NCBI GenBank assembly: GCA_964016885.1
Contig: OZ024764.1
Location: 7,502,001-7,566,000, forward strand
Direction of reading: 5' to 3'
Length of the DNA stretch: 64,000 nucleotides
DNA from: Eledone cirrhosa
Taxonomy: Eukaryota
Shown here: one piece after another, positions 33,201-46,587 of the stretch
Layout: each line of letters opens with the position of its first letter
Position numbering within the stretch: position 1 is the stretch's first letter
Made by a program: the position numbers and the translations under genes
The notes under the pieces: model-generated
What the model saw: the letters and a program-made list of their open reading frames with translations, nothing else
Database searches by the model: none
What the model was told of the DNA's origin: nothing

Positions 33201-36200
33201 AGGGCCAAGGACACCAGAAGTCTCCACTGCTACAGGTAGCTAGATCTGTGCCTATGGTGGTAAGTAGGGAGGTAGCCCTAGGGTCAAGGACACCAGAAGT
33301 CTCCACTGCTACAGGTAGCCAGCTTTGCACCTATGGTGGTAAGTAGGGAGGTAGCCCTAGGGCCAAGGACACCAGAAGTCTCCACTGCTACAGGTAGCTA
33401 GATCTGTGCCTATGGTGGTAAGTAGGGAGGTAGCCCTAGGGTCAAGGACACCAGAAGTCTCCACTGCTACAGGTAGCCAGCTTTGCACCTATGGTGGTAA
33501 GTAGGGAGGTAGTCCTAGGGTCAAGGACACCAGAAGTCTCCACTGCTACAGGTAGCCAGGTCTGTGCCTATGGTGGTAAGTAGGGAGGTAGTCCTAGGGC
33601 CAAGGACACCAGAAGTCTCCACTGCTACAGGTAGCTAGGTCTGTGCCTATGGTGGTAAGTAGGGAGGTAGCCCTAGGGCCAAGGACACCTGAAGTCTCCA
33701 CTGCTACAGGTAGCTAGATCTGTGCCTATGGTGGTAAGTAGGGAGGTAGCCCTAGGGTCAAGGACACCAGAAGTCTCCACTGCTACAGGTAGCCAGGTCT
33801 GTGCCTATGGTGGTAAGTAGGGAGGTAGCCCTAATGCCAAGGACACCTGAAGTCTCCACTGCTATAATCTCACATTTAGACCTGTTTCTCTCTAGATATA
33901 CCTACTGTTATAGTCTCACATTTAGACCTGTTTCTCTCTAGATATACCTACTGCTATAGTCTCAGTTTTAGACCTGTTTCTCTCTAGATATACCTACTGC
34001 TGTAGTCTCACATTTAGACCTGTTTCTCTCTAGATGTACCTACTGCTGTAGTCTCACATTTAGACCTATTTCTCTCTAGATATACCTACTGCTATAGTCT
34101 TACATTTAGACCTGTTTCTCTCTAGATGTACCTACTGCTATAGTCTCACATTTAGACCTGTTTCTCTCTAGATATACCTACTGCTGTAGTCTTACATTTA
34201 GACCTGTTTCTCTCTAGATATACCTACTACTATAGTCTTACATTCAGACATGTTTTTCTCTAGATATACCTACTGCTATAGTCTCACATTTAGACCTGTT
34301 TCTCTCTAGATATACCTACTGCTATAGTCTCACATTTAGACCTGTTTCTCTCTAGATATACCTACTGCTATAGTCTCACATTTAGACCTGTTTCTCTCTA
34401 GATGTACCTATTGCTGTAGTCTTACATTTAGACCTGTTTCTCTCTAGATGTACCTACTGCTGTAGTCTCACATTTAGACCTGTTTCTCTCTAGATATACC
34501 TACTGCTGTAGTCTTACATTCAGACCTGTTTCTCTCTAGATATACCTACTACTATAGTCTTACATTCAGACCTGTTTCTCTCTAGATATACCTACTGCTA
34601 TAGTCTCACATTTAGACCTGTTTCTCTCTAGATGTACCTACTGCTGTAGTCTTACATTTAGACCTGTTTCTCTCTAGATGTACCTACTGCTGTAGTCTCA
34701 CATTTAGACCTGTTTCTTTCTAGATATACCTACTGCTGTAGTCTTACATTCAGACCTGTTTCTCTCTAGATATACCTACTACTATAGTCTTACATTCAGA
34801 CCTGTTTCTCTCTAGATATACCTACTACTATAGTCTTACATTCAGACCTGTTTTTCTCTAGATATACCTACTGCTATAGTCTCACATTTAGACCTGTTTC
34901 TCTCTAGATATACCTACTGCTGTAGTCTTACATTTAGACCTGTTTCTCTCTAGATATACCTACTACTATAGTCTTACATTCAGACCTGTTTCTCTCTAGA
35001 TATACCTACTGCTATAGTCTCACATTTAGACCTGTTTCTTTCTAGATATACCTACTGCAATGGTCTTACATTTAGACCTGTTTCTCTCTAGATATACCCA
35101 CTGCTATAGTCTAATATTTAGACTTCTTTTTCTCTAGATATACCCACTGCTATAGTCTAATATTTAGACTTGTTTTTCTCTAGATATACCCACTGCTAGA
35201 GTCTAATATTTAGACTTGTTTCTCTCTAGATATACCCACTGCTATAGTCTCACATTTAGACCTGTTTCTCTCTAGATATACCTACTGCTGTAGTCTCACA
35301 TTTAGACCTGTTTCTCTCTAGATATACCTACTGCTATAGTCTTACATTTAGACCTGTTTCTCTCTAGATATACCTACTGATATAGTCTTACATTTAGACC
35401 TGTTTCTCTCTAGATATACCCATTGCTATGCTGCAAAAGCCAGTATTTTCAAACATAACGTAAGTACAATTTTCATGCAATTATTGTTGTTGCAGTTGCA
35501 GTTGTTATTTGCCTGCAGTAAAAGAATGTTACAAGATCTTGAGTTTCAGATAAACATATTTAATTACTTTATAAATTGGATTTTATGTGTGTGTGTGATC
35601 CCAGAAGATCCCAATGGAGGGAAGCTGTGGCAGTGGTAGACCAAGGAAGACGTGGTGAGAACTATCTCAAATTGCTGAGACTAGCAGAGGAGATGATGAA
35701 GGAACATGGCAACTGGTGAGATGCTGAAGAGGACCTGTCCAACCCATGCAACCATGAAAAAGTGGACGTAAAAACGTTGATGATGATGATATCAGTAAAA
35801 GTTTCTGAAAGCATTTCGCTTTGACTAAGGCTTGCTCGACTATTAACCAACACTAAAAACTTTTCTGTAATATTTCGGTAGTGCTGATGATGATGATGAT
35901 GATGGTGGTGGTGGTGGTGGTGGTGTCATGGTGGTGGTGGTGGTGGTGGTGGTGGTGGTGGTGGTGGTAGTGGTGGTGGTGATGGTGGTGGTGGTGGTAG
36001 TGATGGTGGTGGTGGTGATGATAATACTAATGGTGGTGGTGGTGGTGGTTGTCATCATTGTTGTCATGGTAGTAGGGATGGTGAAGAAGAACCTTCTAAC
36101 TTTCATACCCTGCTCATCATTTCTAACTACACATTTCCTTATATTTACAATTTTATTTATTACAGGTCTGCTAATTTCGGTGGATTAGGAACTGCGATTG

Positions 36201-46587: not shown

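Follow-up and report, generated by a model that had tools for sequence, protein, structure and literature searches.

The stretch of DNA analysed here, referred to as the window, comprises 64,000 nucleotides of the Eledone cirrhosa genome (C25:7502001-7566000), and the gene copy that lies in it is called W; residues are numbered as in human neprilysin, following PMC2259306 and PMC7822871. Eighteen exons bounded by AG and GT were located between positions 139 and 46587 (Table 1), and when spliced in silico they gave 545 codons with a single terminal stop, as the initial annotation of this DNA had described. With only 17 exons picked from the sequence the frame was broken ahead of the zinc helix; it is restored by a 46-nt exon (exon 12) that adjoins the end of a minisatellite and is required for the W reading frame. 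The same annotation had proposed a pseudo-peptidase in which Gln replaces the catalytic Glu of the zinc helix and Tyr replaces His711. Both codons, CAA and TAC, were verified in the sequence, and the motifs GHQIFH, VNAFY, ENIAD, DSYSP and SPNKLR, together with an Asn at the Asp590 position, were all found in W. What it had missed is that the C-terminal Cys of the CxxW motif and its partner, Cys620, are absent and that exon 14 is 39 nt shorter than in the sister copies. Elsewhere in the window, broken reading frames at 56200-57000 resemble a Helitron Rep/helicase remnant, and intronic segments at 41910-42700, 2800-4020 and 15580-16400 are, judged by eye, what we take to be LINE-like and mariner-like transposon remnants.

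Table 1. Features of gene W and location of the four gene copies on C25. Positions without a prefix are those of the window.
Feature	Position	Strand	Remarks
Copy W	C25, 7.5 Mb		
Copy B	C25, 7.16-7.3 Mb	-	
Copy C	C25, 5.4-5.63 Mb		
Copy D	C25, 25.18-25.36 Mb		
ATG exon piece	C25:7492060-7492079		upstream of window; phase 2, predicted
42-nt micro-cassette	C25:7497617-7497658		upstream of window; predicted
Transmembrane (TM) exon	C25:7498831-7498919		upstream of window; predicted
First ectodomain exon	C25:7500358-7500468		upstream of window; predicted
Exon 1	139..222	+	AG/GT bounds, joined frame
Exon 2	9164..9342	+	joined frame
Exon 3	13204..13314	+	in-frame deletions of 6 and 3 nt, both W-private
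Exon 4	14358..14420	+	joined frame
Exon 5	18736..18866	+	joined frame
Exon 6	19684..19774	+	joint to exon 7 in run X4
Exon 7	20218..20331	+	joints in run X4
Exon 8	21139..21243	+	PF05649 match
Exon 9	22984..23061	+	joined frame
Exon 10	30506..30597	+	joined frame
Exon 11	32153..32208	+	VNAFY; Asn542 position kept
Minisatellite	33860..35413	+	unit bears exon-12 acceptor
Exon 12	35414..35459	+	46 nt
Exon 13	36166..36233	+	zinc helix HQIFH; Asn at Asp590 position
CAA codon	36206..36208	+	Gln at Glu584 position; W-private
Exon 14	38443..38525	+	W-private 39-nt in-frame deletion; segment hypervariable among copies
Exon 15	42854..42919	+	ENIAD; Glu646 and Asp650 positions kept
Exon 16	43689..43787	+	joined frame
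Exon 17	45404..45465	+	DSYSP and SPNKLR
TAC codon	45446..45448	+	Tyr at His711 position; in all five copies with exon 17
Exon 18	46479..46587	+	last exon, with stop; CxxW Cys absent

Homolog searches with single W exons gave no match. When exons were scanned singly against the M13 Pfam models (PF01431 and PF05649), four of the seven matched, each under the whole-protein cut-off, and the last exon was over the cut-off in a genome-wide family search. The last exon and the zinc-helix exon also aligned with human neprilysin and ECE-1 in the PDB. By its exons and motifs, then, W is identified as a member of the M13 (neprilysin) family.

The family search and four DNA searches revealed four full copies on C25 (W, B, C and D), in which all 19 of the compared exons are open and have AG/GT ends. 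From a fifth locus, fragment E (C25:24978232-24979060), the last two exons alone were found, inverted and about 60 kb upstream of the start exon of D. Other M13 loci lie at C24:7.50-7.83 Mb (three clustered), at C3:18, 56, 89, 151 and 193 Mb and at C2:318 Mb, several of them with canonical HExxH helices. Tyr711 is present in all five copies that hold the relevant exon, the Asp590 position carries Asn or (in D) Thr in all four full copies, and CxxW occurs in none, LLFW standing in its place. Position 584 is Gln (CAA) in W, Lys (AAA) in C and Glu (GAA) in B and D, which by the codons of the four copies means that Glu584 is changed twice independently among them. Among the copies there is no variation in the zinc ligands, Asp650 or Arg717, and all four keep the zinc ligand of ENIAD and the NAF/YY substrate motif; copy C has also lost a conserved N-terminal Cys. 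The Gln had been taken for a maintained feature, a claim not supported by its presence in only one of the four copies. The pseudo-peptidase reading itself survived in part: M13 membership, the open frame and the degraded active site all stood, but it applies more to the family than to W on its own, since the replacement of His711 by Tyr and the loss of Asp590 are common to all four copies. RNA editing as a rescue of W was discarded, as A-to-I changes are unable to convert CAA to GAA or TAC to CAC. The AAA codon of copy C (within C25:5617950-5618075) lies in a CpG context, and A-to-I editing could in principle recode it.

Losses confined to W comprise the two short pieces of exon 3 and 39 nt of exon 14, the latter corresponding, by comparison with the three sister copies, to 13 codons of a predicted core helix. 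A degenerate look-alike of the segment deleted from exon 14 lies in an intron of W (window 37479-37527, +), where alone a forward copy occurs; an inverted copy (W ~13560-13610, -) was found in all four gene regions. The minisatellite appears to have grown from the exon-12 acceptor and may affect splicing: W has 31 look-alike acceptors before the true one, and within 3 kb B, C and D have 57, 58 and 40.

The locus is represented in four sequencing runs of one study, all of them deposited under a type other than RNA. Two of them, X1 and X3, are DNA-like and come from one sample, possibly the assembly's own, and X4 was classed as RNA-like from its GT..AG joints. Contigs identical to the window across the CAA codon were present in X1 and X3 beside GAA contigs, and an assembly error was rejected, with the proviso that the sample may be that of the assembly. 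Over exons 5-8 no W letters appeared in X1 and X3, an absence to which no weight was given because contigs drop variants. The contigs of X4 end at exon edges, and GT..AG joints link exons 6-7 and 7-8. Two exon-13 contigs and a loose end were exactly as spliced B and D predict, the exon-13/14 contigs being exact to B (2 mismatches to W) and to D (4); B- and D-type transcripts are spliced at three junctions. None of the letters diagnostic of W (sites 18799, 18805, 18826, 19719, 21142 and 36206) was present in X4. The only spliced run contains the two Glu copies, and for W it does not provide the RNA confirmation proposed in the initial annotation. Since X4 is a single sample of contigs, from which rare variants are dropped, it establishes splicing of B and D but not silence of W.

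In each of the four copies the first ectodomain exon is preceded by a hydrophobic exon of 89-113 nt that runs from phase 2 to phase 1. It stays hydrophobic at a nucleotide identity of 65-72% (five of the six pairs; B and C are 99% identical), and its acceptor flank is 93% identical. As this exon is in phase, the family is predicted to be membrane-bound, a type II protein with a single TM segment that would be an anchor rather than a signal peptide, a prediction that does not support the secreted-gland protein suggested initially. A phase-2 ATG exon was found further upstream in W and D; no homolog of it was found for B and C. The ATG exon, cassette and TM exon of W and the 19 exons that follow (four exons in all lying upstream of the window) chain in phase, with canonical splice sites, into one predicted frame of 632 aa, and the idea that W is a duplicate truncated at its 5' end was rejected on finding them. 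The TM exon also superseded a candidate linker exon of 41 nt, which had weak sites, and upstream blocks common to the copies were set aside as they resembled transposon pieces. The 5' block of copy B (C25:7244000-7316000), which contains candidate first exons and two cassettes, is tandemly duplicated ~52 kb apart.

Before each TM exon lie AG/GT-bounded cassettes of 27-78 nt with conserved flanks (95-99% identical) and hypervariable interiors (62-68%), numbering 1 in W, 6 in B, 9 in D and ~107 in C, where they extend over 530 kb (C25:4871418-5399532) and form higher-order tandem units. An exact donor-flank pattern gave 77 hits in the 3-Gb genome, every one upstream of the four copies and on the strand of the gene. 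A cassette profile found 123 in the fetched DNA; parsing succeeded for 119 of them, namely 103 in C, 9 in D, 6 in B and 1 in W, and four copy-C cassettes have a displaced acceptor. All but one of the 119 are multiples of three in length, and all 67 distinct cassettes are open in phase 2, compared with 15 and 43 in the other frames. No pair of cassette ends can form a stop at the junction, and, leaving aside a 46-nt cassette whose donor is mutated and the four with a displaced acceptor, the cassettes joined in order read through without a stop for 74 (B), 111 (D) and 1363 (C) codons. As they precede the TM exon, the cassettes occupy the position in which a type II protein would have its cytoplasmic tail encoded, and the arrays would encode variable tails, possibly by alternative splicing. 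The cytoplasmic tails of human neprilysin and ECE-1 are short and fixed. Many of the copy-C cassette peptides are rich in Ser/Thr or bear sequons of the N-glycosylation type, and others end in basic residues or YxxPhi; the latter motif occurs in 15 of the 61 distinct peptides, all from copy C. Hexamers resembling ITIM/ITSM were present in four of the 61 (shuffle P 0.008), a signal given little weight because these hexamers are homologous, come from C alone and align with the basic juxtamembrane end that other cassettes have.

Codon counts were made over 556 codons, with the ambiguous hypervariable stretch of exon 14 masked. Pairwise dN/dS among the four copies was 0.95-1.46 (about 1.05-1.10 for W and B), and a maximum-likelihood codon model gave 1.50 (2dL 3.9 against 1). 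A dN/dS near 1, together with missing transcripts, had been named beforehand as the mark of a recent pseudogene, and in part this is what was seen, but the frame is still kept: no stop occurs in the four copies (neutral simulation P=0.0005), all 10 exonic indels are multiples of three, compared with 8/27, 13/40 and 25/69 of the intronic ones (P ~3e-5), and all four indels on the W branch are in frame (P ~0.015). The exons of W and B differ at 67/1668 sites and their introns at 89/5698 (ratio 2.6, P 2e-8). With repeats masked the exon/intron ratio was 1.65-2.57 in all six pairs; it was 1.3-1.6 with unmasked flanks, one pair then being not significant, and 2.9 with a masked chain. Synonymous sites also exceed the intron rate (13/348, P 0.004), so gene conversion or mutational bias may contribute to the fast exons, dN/dS itself being close to neutral. 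Variable sites make up 9/101 from ENIAD onward and 101/455 before it, and the copies share an invariant run of 37 residues (P 0.03). Changes private to W comprise 22 replacements and 2 silent substitutions, an excess that is not significant (P 0.10), and no clear site-level positive selection emerged either from multi-hit codons (10 against 5.9 expected, P 0.06) or from the clustering of changes (P 0.73). Plain neutral decay fits poorly given the zero stops, the in-frame indels, the conserved 3' part and exons that diverge faster than introns. These patterns point to a diversifying family, not a conserved pseudo-enzyme defined by Gln.

A search of a representative protein library returned 32 proteins, including an Octopus sinensis 'neprilysin-3-like' protein. 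The relatives, O. vulgaris CAI9726473.1 and O. sinensis XP_036361325.1 and XP_029655569.2 ('neprilysin-2/3-like'), are 39% identical to the E. cirrhosa copies and form their sister group (98/97) in a 22-row tree in which Octopus sequences are the only other molluscs; conversely, a genome search with the O. sinensis fragment gave these copies as its best hits. The O. vulgaris protein matches the M13 Pfam domains with E values of 3e-48 and 2e-32, and its model (pLDDT 63.5) matches the folds of ECE-1 and neprilysin. On this model the 39-nt deletion of W maps to helix 587-605, most of which is removed, and may misfold the protein. The relatives are likewise multi-copy, O. sinensis having several near-identical loci, and likewise without CxxW; they differ in having Glu584 (HEILH), His711 and Glu at position 590. 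At the Asn542 position they have Gln, and their gene models show no TM segment and may miss 5' exons. As Glu584 and His711 are kept in Octopus, the change of His to Tyr would be derived in the lineage of E. cirrhosa and the Gln younger still.

CxxW is one of four motifs by which fly genes were classed as active neprilysins (PMC8223033), and by the rule as given there all four copies belong, on their motifs, to the neprilysin-like class. HExxH with Glu584 is retained in B and D and missing from W and C, and CxxW, His711 and Asp590 are missing from all; W, like the fly Nepl proteins, combines an intact frame with missing catalytic motifs. In the bacterial M13 peptidase PepS, activity was abolished when the Asp at the Asp590 position was changed to Asn, and little of it was left after a His to Ala change at the His711 position (PMC4701951). 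The four Eledone copies are likely to be weak or dead peptidases. The precedent that had been cited for inactive relatives is sound, since in fly Nepl15, for which a role in sequestering peptides has been proposed, Gln takes the place of Glu584, and rat Kell has Lys at this position (PMC2259306, PMC7822871); with such proteins known, Gln in HExxH is ordinary in itself. Like the Drosophila Nepl genes, which are described as M13 paralogs arisen by local duplication with catalytic residues missing (PMC7822871, PMC8223033, PMC2259306), the Eledone family would be a variant of known neprilysin-like pseudo-peptidases. Nepl15 and W share Gln584 and the lack of His711, but Nepl15 lacks two of the zinc ligands, is probably a secreted protein and has changes conserved across its genus, whereas the Eledone copies keep the zinc ligands, have a TM exon and a cassette array, and carry Gln in one of four very young copies, the Octopus relatives having Glu and His. 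Fold and motif order are shared with human neprilysin and ECE-1 (PDB 1dmt, 3dwb) and with E584D neprilysin (6sh1), and the predicted type II topology with human neprilysin (PMC2259306); the human enzymes are active and, unlike the Eledone copies, possess Glu584, Asp590, His711 and CxxW.

For the cassettes, the nearest described architecture would, by analogy, be the micro-exon genes (MEGs) of schistosomes, which have many small symmetrical exons and evolve rapidly; in VAL-6, exons of that sort are attached to a conventional gene (PMC4350168). The Eledone family has many small, symmetrical, in-frame candidate exons of this kind, W itself only one. MEG products occur in secretions or glands and are described, in the account of PMC4350168, as restricted to flatworms; the Eledone cassettes, unlike MEGs, are tandem duplicates with near-identical flanks that precede a TM exon, to which they are predicted to be spliced. 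An analogy may also be drawn with snake venom families, in which duplicated genes combine conserved introns with hypervariable exon segments and the exons diverge faster than the introns (PMC2474615), although these encode small secreted toxins and the Eledone gene a predicted membrane protein. As far as the available text of three octopus papers goes (PMC12607849, PMC6522055, PMC12919962), neprilysin transcripts are named by similarity only and not tied to this family, and a literature search covering the main text of freely accessible articles yielded no description of the Eledone family or its cassette array.

The reading that we favour, at about an even chance of being right, is that the family drifted from an enzyme to a variable peptide-binding protein of the cell surface, with W inactive but its frame under selection. 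Of the four recent neprilysin-like copies, each predicted to encode a type II membrane protein, one would then have its last 18 exons in the window. Loss of His711 and Asp590 would have left weak or dead peptidases, likely freeing Glu584 to change to Gln in W and Lys in C, and a peptide would be retained, though not efficiently cleaved, by the zinc ligands, Asn542 and Arg717 of the closed M13 chamber. Because frames are kept while exons outpace introns, diversifying selection as a cell-surface peptide binder is likely, and the micro-cassette arrays would give each copy a different, possibly alternatively spliced, cytoplasmic tail. W, which may be expressed, is on these comparisons the most altered member (Gln, the 13-codon deletion, a single cassette, absence from X4), and its frame looks selected. 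It is possible, if rather doubtful, that W is instead an incipient pseudogene, a redundant young duplicate with a damaged catalytic site and deletions but as yet no stop, B and D being the working genes. The private nature of its Gln and 39-nt deletion, the neutral dN/dS against B, its absence among the X4 transcripts and the independent loss of Glu and a conserved Cys in copy C would all be expected of such a gene, and with ~27 substitutions on the W branch (estimated from the simulation settings) a stop is not confidently expected yet; the complete 632-aa frame with its canonical splice sites, the in-frame indels of the W branch and a TM exon that has diverged by 28% and is still hydrophobic speak for selection, and the silence of W in X4 comes from one sample whose contigs drop rare variants.

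That the family consists of still-active peptidases of shifted specificity, in which Tyr replaces His711 as hydrogen-bond donor so that cleavage is retained by B and D and lost only from W and C, we consider unlikely. Tyr is able to stabilise the transition state in other gluzincins, and so B and D may be active. Both copies seen spliced are the Glu copies, the zinc ligands, Asp650 and Arg717 are invariant, the segment from ENIAD onward is more conserved than the part before it, there is an invariant run of 37 residues, and the Octopus relatives keep Glu and His though they have no CxxW. These points have to be set against the crippling of PepS by each of the corresponding changes (PMC4701951), the two changes of Glu584 among four copies and the Thr of D at position 590. 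A very improbable explanation is that a single, highly polymorphic locus was assembled as divergent haplotypes side by side, giving W, B and C, with the Gln as an allele. Intron divergence is indeed just 0.5% between B and C and 1.6% between W and B, the site patterns among W, B and C are mosaic, and the summed contig depth of exon 13 in X1 and X3 was not clearly above that of exons 5-8. However, two haplotypes are too few for three similar copies and D, W and B stand head to head at a distance of 350 kb, their 5' regions differ and no N gap interrupts the 416 kb read, and O. sinensis likewise has several near-identical loci.

On the favoured reading, drift towards a variable peptide-binding surface protein, the weight of the finding lies mainly in the diversifying family and its cassette arrays rather than in the Gln codon. 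It is unusual to find a family of four copies caught losing catalytic residues stepwise, His711 and Asp590 in all and Glu584 twice, and equally so to find exons outrunning introns beside a gene-specific array of up to ~107 hypervariable in-frame micro-cassettes before the TM exon. A bolder suggestion, to which we attach only a small probability, is that an octopod lineage made neprilysin into variable cell-surface receptors with a non-cleaving peptide-binding chamber under diversifying selection and a tail spliced combinatorially from up to ~100 tandem micro-exons, some of which carry tyrosine motifs for sorting or signalling (YxxPhi), the short-tailed W and long-tailed C resembling paired receptors and serving recognition in immunity, self/non-self discrimination or reproduction. 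The natural series formed by the O. vulgaris relative, B and D, and W and C would allow the role of a dead M13 protein as a 'peptide trap' to be tested on unengineered proteins. If it is spliced, the array would represent a system of micro-exon diversity that acts on a cytoplasmic tail and occurs outside flatworms.
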